The notes below the pieces were generated by a model. The model ran no database searches. It was not told the origin of the DNA and saw nothing but the letters and a program-made list of their open reading frames with translations. Below are positions 1,602 through 63,623 of a stretch of DNA of 64,000 nt, piece by piece. The first letter of the stretch is position 1. Every line of letters starts with the position of its first letter. The DNA comes from Escherichia virus TH44. The position numbers and the translations under genes are program-made. The stretch lies in the sequence record MT446415.1; one strand, written 5' to 3'.

Positions 1602-3548
1602 TTATAGTGTAATTGGTTCAAGGTCAATCTTTGTATATTGCGGACGAAGGTCATTCTCAAATACAATCAGTGAACCATCTTGCGTGTATATATTATCTTG
1701 GTTAGGACTTGCATAAAGTTCGATTGATTGAACTTCAAAGCGCTCGGAGGTCAATCCAATCGCGGCGATATCCCAAAAAATATAATCAGAGTAATAGTCA
1801 ATTTCGCCAATTGCGTAATAAACTGTTTGGTCAGCCGGAGCTTCCATTTTATTAAAGTCATCTTGCAGGTAAGGCTGGATGTTTACATTTTCAATAACAT
1901 CGCCTGGACGGAATGGACCAATTACCATTTTACCATCGCCACGAGAATCTTTATCAGTTGCAACAATGCGAACGTTATAGGCTTCACCCGTGGTCGGAAC
2001 AAATTCAAATTCACTTGATTCGACTGAACGGTTGCCATACTGGTTATAGTATTTAATGCCGGATTCTGGAGTCTTAAAGAAGTTCAGGACTTCACGCACC
2101 ATCGAAATGGTTGCAGATGAACCAAGAATACTATGGTCAGTATTATCCACATACGTAAGCATTTTTGACTTAGCAAAACTTCTGTTAAAGATTTCAACTT
2201 CATCGATATAATAACGGTCAATCTGATTAATGATTTGTGCTTGCAGCCATTGTTCAGATTCTTGTAATTTGTTCAGCGCATAAGATACTTTGATATTATG
2301 TTTAAGGAACAAATAATCCGGAGAAATTACCGAGGGTGTAATTGTTGATACGTTGAACTCGCTAAGGTAGTTCTGGATGTCCTCACGCTGCACTGCAGTG
2401 AGATACAAGCCCGATTTAGGCTTAACTGATATAAACGCATACCCAGGCTTATTTGCGTCTGTAAACGTCTGTACGGCTTGCACGATTGAACCAAATCTTT
2501 CAGATACGAAGGTATCATAATCTGTTCCGGTGACAGCACGCATCTGCGCTTCACGTTTAACAACAGCCAGTTCACGGATACGTTCGATATCTTCTGGGTC
2601 ACCACCGCCATCGGCACCGACATAATCAGGGTCGTTGTTGTAGTTTTCAGTAATTTTATCCACTGTGATATAAGACAAAGTATCGGCATAACTGAAATCA
2701 ACAGCGCCGTTTGCATCTGCCCCTGAGGTACGAAGATATTCAATAACAATTGTCGAATCTTGCACCGGTTTGAGACCGCCAATATAGTTGGCTTCCATAA
2801 CGCCACCGGCTACGGATTTGGTGGATTCACCTTCACCGAAGAAAAATTCAGTATAGCCATCGATTGTTTCACGCATATAAAATATGGTGGAAGTCGAACC
2901 AGCATGGACCATTGATTTGTTCGTCCAGTCAACCCACTCAACACCGTTCACATATAACTTAACTTCTTTGCGGTCGATATCCGGGTCGCGAATAAGAATA
3001 GGTTGTTTCGGGTCATATAAAAGTTCTGTACGAATAATACGGCCCTGGGCCAGAGATACAATCGGAAGGTATTGGTTGTTAATATCTTTAACCGCAATAA
3101 CGTTTTCCGTGGTAACAAAAACATAAGGGTCAGCTGATGTATCACGAGCATATGCCAGGAATTTAGTTCCTCGTGGGATTTCAATATTCGATGGTTGCAG
3201 AGCATGAGAACATGTCAACATAACCGAAGTCTTTGCGGCCGAACGTGAAGATGGAAGATATCCATTATCCTGTGCCGCCTGAACAACCGAAGACCTTAAG
3301 TTTGCAGTTCCGATAAATGATTCATAAACTGCTGTATTAGCAAACTGCTGCATATAAAGTGTATTATACGCAAGCATGTCAATCAGGATATTCATTCGCG
3401 AACCTACGAAATCATAATCCTTAAATTCATCCTGGCTTGATAACCAGTCGATGATGTTCTTTTTAATTTCTTCAAACGTAGCTCCCACAAATACTTTTGG
3501 GATAGCGTTAACGGTTCTTGTTAATTGGTAATTCGTAGGAGTAGCCAT
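1602..3548 (-). CDS. 6: baseplate wedge protein gp6
   Basis: 648 aa; N-terminus MATPTNYQLTRTVNAIP...DYDFVGSRMNIL matches remembered T4 gp6; T4 gene order. Confidence 0.9.
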   Translation of the reverse strand: MATPTNYQLTRTVNAIPKVFVGATFEEIKKNIIDWLSSQDEFKDYDFVGSRMNILIDMLAYNTLYMQQFANTAVYESFIGTANLRSSVVQAAQDNGYLPSSRSAAKTSVMLTCSHALQPSNIEIPRGTKFLAYARDTSADPYVFVTTENVIAVKDINNQYLPIVSLAQGRIIRTELLYDPKQPILIRDPDIDRKEVKLYVNGVEWVDWTNKSMVHAGSTSTIFYMRETIDGYTEFFFGEGESTKSVAGGVMEANYIGGLKPVQDSTIVIEYLRTSGADANGAVDFSYADTLSYITVDKITENYNNDPDYVGADGGGDPEDIERIRELAVVKREAQMRAVTGTDYDTFVSERFGSIVQAVQTFTDANKPGYAFISVKPKSGLYLTAVQREDIQNYLSEFNVSTITPSVISPDYLFLKHNIKVSYALNKLQESEQWLQAQIINQIDRYYIDEVEIFNRSFAKSKMLTYVDNTDHSILGSSATISMVREVLNFFKTPESGIKYYNQYGNRSVESSEFEFVPTTGEAYNVRIVATDKDSRGDGKMVIGPFRPGDVIENVNIQPYLQDDFNKMEAPADQTVYYAIGEIDYYSDYIFWDIAAIGLTSERFEVQSIELYASPNQDNIYTQDGSLIVFENDLRPQYTKIDLEPITL

Positions 3549-3556
3549 TTTATTTC

Positions 3557-3850
3557 CTATTTTATAAAGACTTTTGATGAGGCTTGAGCCACAGTATCAC
3601 CACATGAAATCGGGTCTGCCATTTGAACAGCTTTCTTACCGGTAACAAATACTTTTGATGTGCGCGGTTGTGTTACTCCACCGTGAGTTTCATATGGTTT
3701 TTTAATTTCGGTATGCTCGGTAATAGGGTCCCCGGCAACTAACACCGGAATTCCCCCGGTGAATACTTTACCTTGAGTTGCATTAATTACAGTCGGTGGC
3801 CATGCTTCGTGGCCTGCTGTAACACATTGATTGAAACTTAATCCAGCCAT
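3557..3850 (-). CDS. 5.4: PAAR-repeat spike-tip protein gp5.4
   Basis: 97 aa, same length and position as T4 gp5.4; start overlaps 5.1 stop (TAATG). Confidence 0.8.
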
Positions 3851-4371
3851 TAATCCCTCGCATATACGTATGAACGCAATTTATCTGCCCATCTTGACCA
3901 GTTACCAACGATAGTTTTTGTGTAAACTTTTGTCATTGTTTTTCTTACTGGAGCAGGAGGTGGGTCGGTCTCATTACCCGCACGGCTATTACTGCCACCA
4001 GAGCTCCCTGTGTCTCCACCAGAGCTCTCTTCTTGAAAGTCATAGGTTAGGGTTACCGTGTATGAAAAGACTCTCTGGAGGCTCGCTGGGGCCCTCCAGA
4101 GATACAATTGAGTACTCTTATCGGTAGGAAGGTCTTCCCATGAACCAGCAGTTTTGAATTCATCATTAAGCCGATATTTAAGTGCATCATCTGCGAATCC
4201 GAACACGGATTCATAAACGCCATAAAGATGATTCTCCTCAACATTAACGCCAGGGGTGGCCTCATATTCAGTTATATTTATTTCGACTAATGTTTCGTTT
4301 GTTTCTAATTGAGCTGTAAACGTAACATCGATTGAGGCTCCTTCCATGGAGTCTCCTAAGTCAGTGCTCAT
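3850..4371 (-). CDS. 5.1: gp5.1-like protein
   Basis: ORF between genes 5 and 5.4; first ATG downstream of gene 5 stop chosen (track ORF begins at TTG 4431). Confidence 0.6.
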
Positions 4372-59157: not shown

Positions 59158-60581
59158 AAACTATTTTATCCCAGCTACTCTTTAACAAGGAATATTTTGT
59201 TAAAGTCTGGCCATATCTGAATAACACATATTTTGAAAAGGGTCCTGCAAAGACCCTTTTTAATACGATTAACGAACACGTAAAAGAATATCAAGCGGTA
59301 CCAACTAAGACTGCACTTGATATCGCGCTCGACAGTTCTGACCTTTCTGAAGTCGAATATGAAGGCACAAAGAAACTCTTAGGAGTCCTGGCCGATACTC
59401 CAGAAGACCAGGAATGGTTGGTTAAAGAAACCGAGAAGTATGTGCAGAAGTCTGCGATGTTCAATGCCACATCCAGGATTATCGAAATCCAGAGTAATGC
59501 CGAACTTCCGAAAGACAAACGTGATAAACGAATCCCGGATATTGGCGCTATCCCCGACATCATGCGCGATGCATTGTCTATCTGTTTTGACTCTGCTCTG
59601 GGTCATGACTGGTTAAACGATTACGAAGCTCGATTCCAGACTTATCTGAACAAATCGAAGAAGGTTCCGTTCCGTATTAACATCCTGAATAAAATCACAA
59701 AGGGTGGGGTTGAGTACGGTACAGAGAACGTTTTACTGGCCGGGACAAACGTCGGGAAATCCCTTGGACTTTGTTCGTTAGCGGCTGACTATCTTCAGAC
59801 TGGCCATAATGTGCTTTATATAAGCATGGAAATGGCAGAAGAAGTATGTGCCAAGCGTATTGACGCCAACTTGCTGGATGTATCTCTGGATGATATTGAT
59901 GAAGGTCATATATCGTGGGCAGAATACAAAGCTAAGATGGAAAAATGGCGTGCAGCAGGGACTCTTGGGACTCTGAAGATAAAACAATATCCAACTGGCG
60001 GTGCTCATGCGGATACCTTTCGTGCATTGCTGAATGAATACAAACTGAAGCAAGGGTTTGTGCCGGATGTGATTATTGTTGACTACCTAGCAATCTGTGC
60101 AAGCTCAAGACTGAAAACGTTTACCGAAAACAGTTACGGTCTGATTAAGATGGTTGCAGAAGAACTTCGTGGTCTGGCGGTCGAGAAAAATGTGGTCCTG
60201 TGGACTGCAGCACAGACAACCAGGGGTGCGAACGTTGCAGCTGAGATTGATATGGCTGACATCGCAGAATCATTTGGTATTGCTCACACGGCCGACTTTA
60301 TGTTGGGTGTTGTTGAGACCGAAGAATTCGCTCAAATGGGACTACAGTTAATCAAACAGCTTAAGTCTCGTTATGGCGATAAGAACTACTATAATAAATT
60401 CAAGATGGGTGTTAAGAAAGGTAATCAGCGCTGGTATGAGGTTGATGATGATTCAGCTCCTAAACAAGGCCCTACGGTTAAAGAAGCCACTGGTGAGATG
60501 AATCGCCAGGCTGAAATGAATAGACAAACCAGGGTCAACAGGAGCGACCTGGACGACCTTGCTGCTCAAATGAAATTCTAA
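59151..60581 (+). CDS. 41: replicative DNA helicase gp41 (DnaB family)
   Basis: MVETILSQLLFNKEYFVKVWPY...GTNVGKSLGLCSLAADYL...VLYISMEMAEE resembles T4 gp41; GTG start 5 nt after gaggtgg. Confidence 0.95.
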   Translation: MVETILSQLLFNKEYFVKVWPYLNNTYFEKGPAKTLFNTINEHVKEYQAVPTKTALDIALDSSDLSEVEYEGTKKLLGVLADTPEDQEWLVKETEKYVQKSAMFNATSRIIEIQSNAELPKDKRDKRIPDIGAIPDIMRDALSICFDSALGHDWLNDYEARFQTYLNKSKKVPFRINILNKITKGGVEYGTENVLLAGTNVGKSLGLCSLAADYLQTGHNVLYISMEMAEEVCAKRIDANLLDVSLDDIDEGHISWAEYKAKMEKWRAAGTLGTLKIKQYPTGGAHADTFRALLNEYKLKQGFVPDVIIVDYLAICASSRLKTFTENSYGLIKMVAEELRGLAVEKNVVLWTAAQTTRGANVAAEIDMADIAESFGIAHTADFMLGVVETEEFAQMGLQLIKQLKSRYGDKNYYNKFKMGVKKGNQRWYEVDDDSAPKQGPTVKEATGEMNRQAEMNRQTRVNRSDLDDLAAQMKF

Positions 60582-60600
60582 AGACCTTCGGGTCTTTTTC
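60581..60600 (+). terminator. rho-independent terminator with UUCG tetraloop
   Basis: aagacc-ttcg-ggtctt then TTT; start of ~90-bp block also at 31283-31381. Confidence 0.7.
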
Positions 60601-60670
60601 ATTTAGGGGGTTTACATCCTCATAAAAGGGGTGTACTATTATCCCATCAACTACTGATGAGGATAATAAA

Positions 60671-60919
60671 ATGTTATTAGTTAATGTGCATTACCAGTTC
60701 AAATCTGAAGAAGCTCTCCAAAAGTATGCTGACATTTGTGAGCATAATAAAAGAACAGCTGCCATTGTTGGTCTGAAGCCTTTTAAAATTTTGGATTGCT
60801 CCTTGAACAGAGCAAGGCGCTGGTGTAGTGTTGCCTGTCATGCTTCAGTTGAAGGGAATGATTATTTTTTCATTACTTTCAATGCACAAGATTTTCATTT
60901 AATTAATGAATTAAAATAG
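60671..60919 (+). CDS. hypothetical protein
   Basis: 82 aa after conserved leader. Confidence 0.55.
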   Translation: MLLVNVHYQFKSEEALQKYADICEHNKRTAAIVGLKPFKILDCSLNRARRWCSVACHASVEGNDYFFITFNAQDFHLINELK

Positions 60920-61301: not shown

Positions 61302-61311
61302 GTGAACAAAA

Positions 61312-61331
61312 GGGGCTTACAGCCCCTTTTT
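61312..61331 (+). terminator. rho-independent terminator carrying the -35 of the next promoter
   Basis: ggggc-ttaca-gcccc then TTTTT; followed by TGtTATAAT (61336-61344). Confidence 0.65.
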
Positions 61332-61370
61332 CTTATGTTATAATGACTCTATCAACTACTGGAGAATAAA

Positions 61371-61688
61371 ATGAAAACCATTGATTGCAAGGCAGAATAC
61401 AAAGTTTATTATCATGGGTCAAGCTCTAATGCTGGAATCCAAAATATGCTTTGTCCTCCTGATGCAACTGGTGTTCTGTCAGAAGTTGGACGTAAGAAAA
61501 ATTTAGGGCGTGTGTTTTTTACTGAAGATATTGGTTTGGCGCGTATCTATGCAGGAAGAGCAGCTCGCTCATATGGAGGAGAACCCCGTCTTTATCGTGT
61601 GATTGCACCTGTTGACGTGGTTTGTTTAAATGACACTAAAGGCGCAACAGTTTATCACGCCGCATGGGCGTTTTGTGAGGAAATCTAA
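61371..61688 (+). CDS. hypothetical protein
   Basis: 105 aa after leader ctatcaactactggagaataaaATG. Confidence 0.55.
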   Translation: MKTIDCKAEYKVYYHGSSSNAGIQNMLCPPDATGVLSEVGRKKNLGRVFFTEDIGLARIYAGRAARSYGGEPRLYRVIAPVDVVCLNDTKGATVYHAAWAFCEEI

Positions 61689-61892
61689 ATGTATAAATTA
61701 GAGAACGTAGTGTTTATTGGTTGGTTTGAAAATGGTAATATGTTTACCAAAGAAACCGCGCTGGATGTCAGTGACAAAAATATGATTGAATGGGTTACAG
61801 TGCAGTATGCAGAAGTGAATAATGCGCTGGTTAAAGCCTTTGTTAATGACAATAAAGTTTTTGAATATGATGCCCGCATTGAGGAAATCTAA
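61689..61892 (+). CDS. hypothetical protein
   Basis: 67 aa; ends ...ARIEEI; weak paralog of next gene. Confidence 0.5.
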   Translation: MYKLENVVFIGWFENGNMFTKETALDVSDKNMIEWVTVQYAEVNNALVKAFVNDNKVFEYDARIEEI

Positions 61893-62234
61893 ATGACTTT
61901 TAATCCAGAAGACCGCGTAAAAGTAACAATCAAAGTGAGTGCCGTTGGCGTTCCATCTTTTGAGCGCTCAAGTATGTTCCATCCCGCAGGTATTCACTGG
62001 TATGTCCAGAAGACTGCTGATAACTATAATGCACTGGTTGAAGCTTTTGTTGATGACAAGCTAATTCATAAAGTAGACATGCGTAAGGGTACTGCATTGC
62101 GTAATCTGATTTTGACCGTTGAAGCTCAACTGGTAAATGAAGAAATCTGCCTTACTGATATTGAAGCGGCTCTTCATATTGCGCGTGCTGAATATTACAA
62201 CTTGACTGGTTTTTCAGTTGAAGGTGAAAAATAA
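61893..62234 (+). CDS. hypothetical protein
   Basis: 113 aa. Confidence 0.55.
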   Translation: MTFNPEDRVKVTIKVSAVGVPSFERSSMFHPAGIHWYVQKTADNYNALVEAFVDDKLIHKVDMRKGTALRNLILTVEAQLVNEEICLTDIEAALHIARAEYYNLTGFSVEGEK

Positions 62235-62264
62235 GTGTACATCAAAGGGATAATGCAGTATATT
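62235..62264 (+). promoter_or_regulatory. early-promoter cassette (gtgtac-N18-tatatt)
   Basis: agggataa/ttatccct repeat; leader atcaactactgaggagattgaaATG. Confidence 0.5.
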
Positions 62265-62292
62265 ATCCCTATCAACTACTGAGGAGATTGAA

Positions 62293-62586
62293 ATGAAAAA
62301 GTTATTAATCGCAGCAATTCTTACCGTAGCATCATGTGGTACAGCTCCAGTTACTGCTGGACTTGATAAAGACCTTTGTGAGTGGTCTATGACTGCGGAC
62401 CAGACTGATGTTGAACACCAGATTTATGCTGACATCATGAACATTACTAAACGTGACCGCCCAGATATGGTTAAAGAAGTATCTGACCAACTGGCTTCTG
62501 GTGACGTTATGCAGTATAACTATGTTCTGTATTGCGATGCTTCATTTGACAACAGCAAGATTGTTCAATGGGTTACAGGTGAATAA
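62293..62586 (+). CDS. lipoprotein
   Basis: Signal peptide with lipobox MKKLLIAAILTVASC. Confidence 0.6.
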   Translation: MKKLLIAAILTVASCGTAPVTAGLDKDLCEWSMTADQTDVEHQIYADIMNITKRDRPDMVKEVSDQLASGDVMQYNYVLYCDASFDNSKIVQWVTGE

Positions 62587-62587
62587 A

Positions 62588-63028
62588 ATGATTAACAGAA
62601 ATTTAGTTATCAAAAAACTTCGTTGTAAAAATCAAAATGCACAAGCATACAGGATGTTTTGGAGCGACGAGCCCATTCAATACCTGGGTTATTTTCTTGT
62701 TGATAGTGATAATAGAATTACGTTTGCTCATAAACTTCTTAACAAAGAATTAAACCATTGGCAAGAACTTATTGCGGTCAAGTCTAAATTATTTTCGCGC
62801 AATACAATACACCAATTGGTTTATTTTTTCGCTGATGGTATTCCTGACAAGGTTGAGTTTGACGGGTTTGAATTTAAAGACATCAACCCTGATAATGAAT
62901 TGAATGACAGTATTGTTAATATGGGTATCCCGGGTAAGTACATCAAAAACAGTCTTTTGAAACTTCTGGAAACCCCTGTATATTCAGTTGACGACCAGAT
63001 TTTTAATGCCTTCATGAAGCGAGATTAA
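62588..63028 (+). CDS. hypothetical protein
   Basis: ATG 1 nt after previous stop (track ORF 62453 is another gene's region); ends DDQIFNAFMKRD. Confidence 0.55.
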   Translation: MINRNLVIKKLRCKNQNAQAYRMFWSDEPIQYLGYFLVDSDNRITFAHKLLNKELNHWQELIAVKSKLFSRNTIHQLVYFFADGIPDKVEFDGFEFKDINPDNELNDSIVNMGIPGKYIKNSLLKLLETPVYSVDDQIFNAFMKRD

Positions 63029-63032
63029 TATG
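62990..63032 (+). repeat. 43-bp direct repeat, copy 1 (3' end of gene plus next ATG)
   Basis: gacgaccagatttttaatgccttcatgaagcgagattaatATG vs copy at 63362. Confidence 0.7.
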
Positions 63033-63184
63033 CATATTCAAAGTGATTTATCTTATCTGAATTTTGAATTAGTTAAAAATAATGATGGTAATGCTCATTA
63101 TGAATTCCGTGAACCCAGGTTTAATCAGGCGCGATTGGTTATATTATCGTTAAAGATGATGTTATCATAAAGGCTCGCTCATTT

Positions 63185-63400
63185 ATGGTAATGAATGGAC
63201 CGTATGAAGATACTCGTGGCTACCCATTTGATAAAAAGAATGTGCGCGATTGTGCAGTCTGGATAACTGGAAACCCTGAAATTGGGGTCATGTTATCTAC
63301 TGAAGCAAATGACATTCTGGAAGCGGGCTGGGTCAAAGCTCAAGAACCGCCTACTGATATTGATGACCAGATTTTTAATGCTTTCATGAAGCGAGGTTAA
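63185..63400 (+). CDS. hypothetical protein
   Basis: 71 aa; ends DDQIFNAFMKRG. Confidence 0.55.
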   Translation: MVMNGPYEDTRGYPFDKKNVRDCAVWITGNPEIGVMLSTEANDILEAGWVKAQEPPTDIDDQIFNAFMKRG

Positions 63401-63404
63401 TATG
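63362..63404 (+). repeat. 43-bp direct repeat, copy 2
   Basis: tgatgaccagatttttaatgctttcatgaagcgaggttaatATG; 40/43 identical to copy 1. Confidence 0.7.
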
Positions 63405-63623
63405 TTTGTTTTGACACAATTCTCTAAAGCAATATATAGTTACACTTGTCAGTGGGAAGTCTTTATTGATACTCCATCTCCCAAGTATGGAGTTTTTGGA
63501 CGAGTAACTACTCAAGCCTACGTTGCACGACCGACTAAACGTCAGATTCGTAAACTTAAAAAGGCGCATCGTCAACTGATTAAAAGAAGGGAACAATATG
63601 AGTGCAATGTGTACGGGCTCTAA
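63402..63623 (+). CDS. small basic protein
   Basis: 73 aa, Lys/Arg-rich C-terminus. Confidence 0.5.
   Translation: MFVLTQFSKAIYSYTCQWEVFIDTPSPKYGVFGRVTTQAYVARPTKRQIRKLKKAHRQLIKRREQYECNVYGL

Follow-up and report, generated by a model that had tools for sequence, protein, structure and literature searches.

A 43-bp direct repeat in a T4-like coliphage probably encodes the invariant C-terminal tail of AdfA-family proteins

Why do two adjacent phage genes end in the same peptide, encoded by almost the same DNA? The window, i.e., the whole stretch of 64 kb which was analysed, contains a 43-bp direct repeat with copies at 62990-63032 (GACGACCAGATTTTTAATGCCTTCATGAAGCGAGATTAATATG) and 63362-63404 (GATGACCAGATTTTTAATGCTTTCATGAAGCGAGGTTAATATG). 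Direct reading of the sequence gives 40 identities in 43 positions. Each copy comprises the last 12 codons of one ORF, its stop codon and the ATG of the next ORF, exactly as an earlier note on this DNA had described. Of the three differences, GAC/GAT and GCC/GCT are silent, and the third alters the last residue from D to G. In a repeat search the pair stretches to 45 nt with 93% identity (62988-63032 and 63360-63404). A search with the degenerate back-translation of DDQIFNAFMK, allowing up to 3 mismatches, found exactly two sites in the window; the same search returned a two-match outcome in none of 100 dinucleotide-preserving shuffles of the window (mean 0.00). A looser peptide expression, applied to all six frames of the window, retrieved the same two sites and no others. 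A weak third copy within sp (62411-62455, 64% DNA identity, VEHQIYADIM) was discarded as chance; a profile HMM of the tail leaves Sp unranked among the window ORFs. The earlier note had considered the upstream gene (gene A) and the downstream gene (gene B) as unrelated. It had proposed either a functional tag or a recombination module which moves the 3' ends of genes between loci, as a counterpart of 5' cassettes.

Judged by its sequence, the window is that of a T4-like coliphage, Gaprivervirus; the region is 95-97% identical to the Gaprivervirus phages VR20, UPEC01 and TH41. The gene order is uvsX, 40, 41, small early genes including dmd (61689-61892), sp, A, B, a TifA/gp61.4-like gene, a 63-aa gene and 61.1. 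The primase gene, which comes after 61.1 in related records, lies beyond the window end. Gene A fills the slot between spackle and 61.1 in which T4 has AdfA, and sp precedes every tail-bearing gene in T4, RB33, RB69, T2, JS98, L034 and L035. The product of the right-hand neighbor is 42% identical to T4 gp61.4 (E=5e-14), i.e., TifA, an inhibitor of ToxN (PMC9391042). Srikant et al. considered this stretch of T4, which holds dmd, tifA and adfA, as a likely "anti-TA island" (PMC9391042). The features of the locus are compiled in Table 1.

Table 1. Features at and around the two copies of the repeat, with window positions.
Feature	Position	Strand	Basis
sp (Spackle), conserved left flank	62293..62586	+	annotated sp in VR20 and UPEC01
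Gene A, 146 aa, phrog_8539	62588..63028	+	phrog_8539, E=1.3e-90
Tail core copy 1, codons for DDQIFNAFM	62990..63016	+	sequence; peptide invariant, codons vary only synonymously across phages
Junction copy 1: K-R-D codons, stop, ATG of gene B	63017..63032	+	direct reading
Gene B, about 122 codons if intact, phrog_4122	63030..63400	+	phrog_4122, E=3.1e-53
Extra GC in GCGCG run, +2 frameshift	63129..63133	+	alignments with VR20, UPEC01 and MN01
Tail core copy 2, codons for DDQIFNAFM	63362..63388	+	direct reading
Junction copy 2: K-R-G codons, stop, ATG of next gene	63389..63404	+	direct reading
TifA (gp61.4)-like gene, DUF7279, right flank	63402..63623	+	Pfam DUF7279, E=9e-20

In the window gene B is split into two ORFs, 63030-63170 and 63185-63400. 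The three aligned relatives VR20, UPEC01 and MN01 carry a single ORF instead (117 aa in VR20, 122 aa in UPEC01 and MN01), and the GC insertion is absent from all three. Thus, the 71-aa ORF at 63185-63400, previously taken as a gene of its own, is the 3' remnant of a frameshifted gene B. The closest allele, that of MN01, is intact at 96% DNA identity. The broken gene B is either a pseudogene or the product of a sequencing error.

What is the shared peptide? T4 gp61.2, i.e., AdfA (PF23813), which is said to have been described by LeRoux et al. in 2022, has the C-terminal end SIDDQIFNAFMNRG (...VNVSIDDQIFNAFMNRG). The conserved end of AdfA, ...S[IV]DDQIFNAFM[NK][RK]G, is present in A and B, with 11 to 14 of 14 residues identical to AdfA of T4 or RB69. 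The shared tail comprises 12-14 residues, [S/D][I/V]DDQIFNAFM[K/N][R/K][G/D]. The Pfam AdfA model matches gene B in residues 102-117 only, i.e., the last 16, and these align with model positions 196-211, again the last 16. The score of B, 21.4 bits, is below the cut-off of 27, and A has no match to the model; outside of the tail, neither attains the Pfam threshold for AdfA. For gene A no Pfam family at all was matched at E<=0.1, and NCBIfam yielded nothing for A, B, AdfA or B', a divergent B type. The families phrog_8539 (A), phrog_4122 (B) and phrog_3781 (AdfA) cross-match in the tail only. From an index of 5.8 billion proteins, all recovered members of these three families end in [S/D/A][I/V]D[D/E]QIFNAFM[N/K/E][R/K][G/D]. 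A published primer for RB69 adfA encodes the same tail end (PMC11257639).

AdfA, anti-DarT factor A, is reported to bind the toxin DarT1, and residue 164 decides about binding; deletion of adfA from T4 had no phenotype on DarTG1 (PMC11257639). Our statements on AdfA draw on PMC11257639, PMC11825919 and PMC9391042. The resemblance of A and B to AdfA includes an identical tail, the same slot after sp, the same early-gene, translationally coupled context, and possibly a similar fold, as suggested by Foldseek matches between predicted models. They differ in size: A (146 aa) and B (117-122 aa) have one domain whereas AdfA (208-216 aa) has apparently two. Altogether, what the repeat encodes is probably the conserved C-terminus of AdfA-family proteins; its remainder is the junction at which one gene stops and the next one starts.

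The repeat is by no means confined to the two sites which the earlier note had seen. A blastn search with 52 nt found 749 copies in 552 phage records, all from enterobacterial Tevenvirinae, and a scan of IMG/VR found 16 loci, all of which are the locus between sp and 61.1. The AdfA body, taken without its tail, was counted in 487 records, A in 85 and B-type genes in 332. Related genomes have one tail copy or two adjacent ones, the window two. In every locus read, the tail-bearing genes follow directly on sp, singly or in tandem: sp-AdfA-61.1 in T4, AdfA-B'-61.1 in RB33 and L019, sp-B'-61.1 in T2, sp-A-TifA-like in JS98 and VR26, sp-A-B in the window, sp-A'-B in L035, and sp-B'' in the more distant L034. 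When 1.84 billion cluster representatives were searched with a profile built from the last 30 aa, eight matches reached E<=1e-3, all at the extreme C-terminus: A, the mosaic A', B, two divergent B types (B' and B''), AdfA, and two fragments. Among these 1.84e9 representatives no protein outside of this set bears the tail. A dispersed 3'-end module or a C-terminal tag on unrelated genes was dismissed on these grounds, i.e., a single locus in all loci read and a single family set. Some records are peculiar. That of phiD1 with four tail copies is probably an assembly artefact, with runs of N at the joins, and was excluded. The records of DCP80, with tails in four places, and of phage 04086 appear rearranged or poorly annotated; the DCP80 tails were nonetheless kept in the table of tail variation.

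Are A and B unrelated genes, as the earlier note had it, each having captured the same mobile 3' end which might be attached to any gene? BLASTP of A against B aligns just the 13 residues of the tail, the two belong to different PHROGs, neither passes the Pfam threshold for AdfA, and A' constitutes a different body on the same 3' module. All this speaks for such a capture. The predicted structures speak against it. In the AlphaFold2 model of A, strands at residues 5-11, 19-25, 31-38, 43-50 and 58-60 are followed by a helix (71-82) and a strand (88-92); in B the strands are at 6-15, 18-25, 30-38, 41-47 and 55-57, the helix at 65-76 and the last strand at 82-85. Order and spacing of the elements are the same. 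The core of A, residues 1-100, is modelled with a pLDDT of 75-86, the tail region with <50; the model of the gene B family member P0052 has a mean pLDDT of 79.8.

Foldseek searches of predicted viral structures agree. The B model retrieved an A-family model (E=9.3e-5, probability 1.00, TMq 0.57), the AdfA fragment of Yersinia phage fPS-65 (E=5.3e-5, TMq 0.55) and a 212-aa protein of the length of RB69 AdfA (E=3.3e-4, TMq 0.54), and the A model retrieved the fPS-65 fragment (E=1.7e-5, TMq 0.43), all with scores which count the identical tail residues, with large rmsd and between models which are predictions throughout. A full-length AdfA model was not among the hits of the A model, and no solved structure of AdfA was found. 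The fPS-65 protein corresponds to AdfA residues 52-208; reading of its locus showed that it is annotated short, with a nonsense codon near the start.

Profile comparisons by hhalign after removal of the tails point in the same direction. A aligns to B with E=0.006-0.014, A to AdfA residues 12-78 with E=0.01, and B to AdfA residues 35-72 (E=0.003) and 108-167 (E=0.009). These alignments are weak, with low probabilities, and the profiles are shallow, searches of the 5.8-billion-protein index with A, B and AdfA having delivered close relatives only; yet the aligned regions are mutually consistent. The N-terminal half of AdfA aligns to its C-terminal half with E=7e-4; apparently, AdfA carries the domain of A and B twice, with the common tail at its end. 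In BLASTP, residues 93-145 of A match residues 146-207 of AdfA with 37% identity. A hairpin motif, G-h-h-h-V-K-[DN]-[DN]-x-I-h (h, hydrophobic), and a later "PF..N..D.A" recur in A, B and AdfA; even A' carries the conserved hairpin motif of the family (YVGFIMVQNNKII). In view of the shared model topology, the Foldseek matches, the consistent tail-less profiles and the recurring motifs we consider A and B as related by descent. Together with the identity of the tail, it is probable that they are tandem, single-domain and very diverged paralogs of AdfA, as far as models can tell. Capture of one 3' end by unrelated genes is unlikely, also considering that the tail was seen exclusively within this family set.

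Paralogy does not by itself determine at which level the tail is preserved. Compared between families and genera, gene bodies share 22-47% identity, tails 11 to 14 of 14 residues. Within the 27-nt core which encodes DDQIFNAFM the third position varies in eight of nine codons; the ninth, ATG, has no synonym. In the copies collected all nine distinct changes of the core are synonymous. Of the 81 single changes which are possible, no more than 11 leave the peptide unaltered; at 11/81 per change, ignoring transition/transversion bias, nine out of nine would come about by chance with a probability of about 2e-8. The pair of tails in L035 encodes one and the same peptide, with differences at 5 of 27 nt. 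Since all core changes are synonymous and the tails stay while the bodies diverge, DDQIFNAFM is, by the pattern of substitutions, kept by strong purifying selection on the peptide and not on the DNA. The functional peptide, one of the two options of the earlier note, is thereby supported.

One may object that the repeat is purely a DNA-level module for recombination or conversion, and that the encoded peptide has no function. Several observations are in line with this. Within seven genomes, which represent only about three independent lineages, the tails are 0-2 nt apart, compared to a mean of 2.45 to the orthologous tails of other genera. Synonymous variants specific for a lineage occur in both copies (TTC in Gaprivervirus, GAT at codon 2 in L019). 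The mosaic A' of L035 has a body without DNA similarity to A, a sharp boundary, and the same last ~95 nt. T4 equals RB33 minus 358 bp between the AdfA tail and the B' tail, with the junction inside the repeat: AdfA of T4 ends with AAT AGA GGT, i.e., B'-type, followed by 61.1, that of RB33 with AAT AAA GGT, followed by B'. Conversion alone, however, is insufficient to explain nine of nine synonymous changes spread over eight of nine codons in 27 nt. The L035 tails preserve an identical peptide in spite of their five differences, and RB69, T4, Gaprivervirus and the distant L034 keep the peptide with different codons and a different downstream junction. A module devoid of peptide function is quite unlikely.

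Recombination is nevertheless part of the picture. In VR26 gene A is joined straight to the TifA-like gene, without B. The tail distances suggest that tails are occasionally homogenised within genomes, L035 with its five differences being the exception. T4 recombines at homologies of 6-10 bp (PMC9391042), and 40-50 nt of near-identity should thus be an effective substrate. With 30-50 nt of near-identity between neighbors, a gene between two tails could be deleted or inserted, a gene body upstream of a tail could be replaced, and tails would probably be homogenised now and then. Hence, one part of the recombination proposal of the earlier note holds: the homology is apparently used, to judge from the T4/RB33 junction and from A' on its ~95-nt module. 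Movement between loci did not hold, because in every locus read the copies lie between sp and 61.1 and at the extreme C-terminus. The recombination role is a consequence of a selected peptide motif in one locus and not that of a mobile 3' cassette.

The last 13-16 nt of the repeat (CGAGGTTAATATG) are a different matter. They contain a Shine-Dalgarno sequence and the overlapping stop/start of the next gene. Junction copy 1 (AAGCGAGATTAATATG) has a Shine-Dalgarno-like GAGA and an overlapping TAA/ATG, junction copy 2 (AAGCGAGGTTAATATG) the Shine-Dalgarno sequence GAGG, and in the relatives each tail copy shows the same layout. Plausibly, this part alone is constrained as DNA or RNA as well. Could the conservation as a whole be that of a regulatory element, i.e., a ribosome-binding site with translational coupling, an RNA structure or an embedded promoter? 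Both copies, like most relatives, have GAGG (or GAGA) and the overlapping TAATATG; two other gene boundaries of the window bear a similar junction of 16 nt (TGAGGAAATCTAAATG); and the T4 version of the tail contains the string TGCTTTT, which we take to resemble a MotA box. Yet RNA folding of four versions of the repeat gave z-scores from -0.95 to +1.23, among them +0.65 and +1.23, none better than shuffles, which indicates no structure; neither copy contains a promoter or a terminator; the synonymous codons GCC TTC destroy the MotA-like string in the window; and L034 keeps the tail peptide with a different, non-overlapping junction. Because the core varies at third positions over its entire 27 nt, regulation accounts for no more than the last ~13-16 nt, and as an explanation of the whole repeat it is very unlikely.

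With selection on the peptide as the preferred reading, the architecture of the proteins is informative. Nowhere is the B alignment more variable than in the stretch ahead of the tail, where indels occur as well. In the models the pLDDT is <50 at residues 103-131 of A and 101-110 of B, and <50-55 from the linker onward; the tail is modelled as a short helix of low confidence in both. An amphipathic helix or a membrane anchor was discarded since the hydrophobic moment is unremarkable; 35-47% of shuffles are as high. The protein would consist of a specificity domain which evolves fast and, tethered to it flexibly, a short helix which does not vary and might bind something conserved. This predicted combination is the pattern one expects of a tethered binding peptide, and an invariant tail beside fast-evolving domains argues for a conserved partner.

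Type II antitoxins such as Phd, CcdA, MazE and RelB consist of a folded domain and a disordered C-terminal tail which binds the toxin. The likeness lies in the architecture, in which a flexible region connects the folded domain to a short C-terminus with a predicted helix, and in the reported binding of a toxin by AdfA. However, there is no relation in sequence or fold, and A and B are phage-encoded without a cognate toxin gene. Further, the tail of a classical antitoxin co-varies with its toxin, whereas that of the AdfA family is invariant and its toxin contact only putative. By this analogy, and because AdfA is reported to bind DarT, the most likely candidate for the partner of the tail is a surface which is conserved among the target toxins. 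Alternatively, it may be another family member or the tail itself, or, ranked third, a conserved phage or host protein. The mutation R164H, the switch for DarT1 binding in RB69 AdfA, lies in the segment FTENNINRIAS, which may correspond to helix alpha1 of the A and B models, as read from the hhalign alignment and the models. The protease adaptor SspB, which uses its C-terminal ClpX-binding motif as a tethering peptide, offers a second parallel, since there, too, a linker which varies in length connects the domain that binds the substrate to a short and invariant peptide for docking at the C-terminus. The AdfA-family tail has no sequence similarity to the SspB motif.

Tentatively, and with less than even confidence, we propose that the tail is a portable effector or docking peptide, that the variable domain picks the target, e.g., DarT-like toxins, and that the coding sequence of the tail doubles as homology for swapping. 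The constant helix might plug a conserved site of the toxin, recruit a host or phage partner, or pair family members; the tail homology would let phages swap, add and drop specificity domains at one locus. If this is true, T2, Gaprivervirus and Dhakavirus, which are said to lack adfA, carry single-domain versions.

Two cases from T4-type phages deserve comparison. Arbiol, Comeau and Krisch reportedly described in 2010 the PeSLs, "promoter-early stem-loop" mobile regulatory cassettes of T4-type phages. Similarities are short repeats at gene boundaries, a location in hyperplastic regions, and a possible use as homology for modular shuffling. A PeSL, however, is a non-coding 5' hairpin with an early promoter, whereas the repeat described here is in frame inside two ORFs, selected as a peptide and restricted to one locus, with neither a hairpin nor a promoter-like site. 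A PeSL-type cassette was therefore rejected, and the repeat is not the counterpart of 5' cassettes which the earlier note had suspected. Repoila et al. are said to have reported in 1994 a capsid-targeting sequence common to the polymorphic internal-protein genes of T-even phages. There, too, a short conserved terminal peptide is found on diverse genes in one hypervariable T-even locus, has its function as a peptide and is usable as homology. The capsid-targeting peptide is N-terminal, is cleaved and has a role in head packaging; the AdfA-family tail is C-terminal.

The finding is explained mostly by known biology and is no new kind of system. Three points appear to be undescribed in the papers on AdfA cited here: that phrog_8539 and phrog_4122 belong with AdfA, including in T2; that the tethered tail is the one invariant element of the family; and that tails mark breakpoints of gene gain and loss. 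Published searches count T2 and others as being without adfA, yet T2 has a B-type gene with the tail. Recombination from tail to tail would explain the differences in copy number among T4, T2, RB33 and Gaprivervirus, and the nine-residue core of the tail is the obvious first target for mutagenesis. AdfA is one of few known phage inhibitors of the DarTG defence. Predicted fold, slot and tail link to it phrog_8539 (~85 records) and the phrog_4122-type genes (~330 records, including T2), and through this putative link T-even phages gain further candidates for anti-toxin proteins.

The 16-nt junction TGAGGAAATCTAAATG is identical at 61676-61691 and 61880-61895 and ends two neighbouring genes, 61371-61688 and dmd (61689-61892), so that both proteins terminate in ...EEI. 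The junction also brings the Shine-Dalgarno sequence and the ATG of the following gene. The pair is a second, shorter instance of adjacent genes which possess a common 3' end and a coupling junction. In the ORF which follows dmd, one segment resembles Dmd (phrog_2102, E=8.8e-6; Pfam Dmd, E=0.0017, under threshold); this ORF may be a tandem Dmd paralog with an extra C-terminal part.

A leader which includes a TATAAT-like box, then ATCAACTACTGAGGAG and then ATG is repeated upstream of three ORFs. Two of the three leaders sit 3' of terminator-like hairpins and promoter-like sites. The leader repeats are similar to PeSL (promoter-early stem-loop) modules. Most probably, these leaders are the 5' cassettes mentioned in the earlier note.

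Features of the window outside the 43-bp repeat
Feature	Coordinates	Location	Remark
Repeated leader, ~40 nt	60634-60671, 61339-61376, 62259-62296	upstream of three ORFs	
Terminator-like hairpins	60580-60597, 61308-61330		
113-aa ORF	61893-62234	directly 3' of dmd	Dmd-like segment, residues 30-65
Extra GC in GCGCG run	63129-63133	inside gene B (63030-63400)	reading frame lost after codon 34

Within sp a weak, in-frame third match to the 43-bp repeat is present at 62411-62455, with 64% DNA identity, coding for VEHQIYADIMNITKRD vs VDDQIFNAFMKRD. Sp was not ranked by the tail HMM among the ORFs of the window; thus, this repeat-like stretch is probably due to chance.

Phage T2 has been described as naturally devoid of an adfA homolog (PMC11257639); its record carries, directly 3' of sp, a B-type gene of 118 aa that bears the AdfA tail (1992-2348). 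In Yersinia phage fPS-65 adfA (3536-4160, minus strand) is interrupted close to its start by a stop codon, TAG vs a Gln codon in T4, and the sole product annotated for it is a C-terminal one of 157 aa, i.e., BFVD entry A0A449C4E3. The record of Yersinia phage phiD1 contains four tail copies (812-2348), those of AdfA, the divergent B type B', a 33-aa ORF and a second B', and has N characters where the copies join. This array is probably an assembly artefact and not a true triplication. Gene B itself, frameshifted in the window, is unbroken in the nearest relatives MN01, VR20 and UPEC01; the frameshift either marks a genuine pseudogene or stems from an error in sequencing.

Directly 3' of gene B, phage MN01 has a 63-aa phrog_3249 gene (1581-1772) and lacks the TifA-like gene found in the window at 63402-63623. 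The TifA-like gene constitutes a further presence/absence polymorphism at the sp-61.1 locus.
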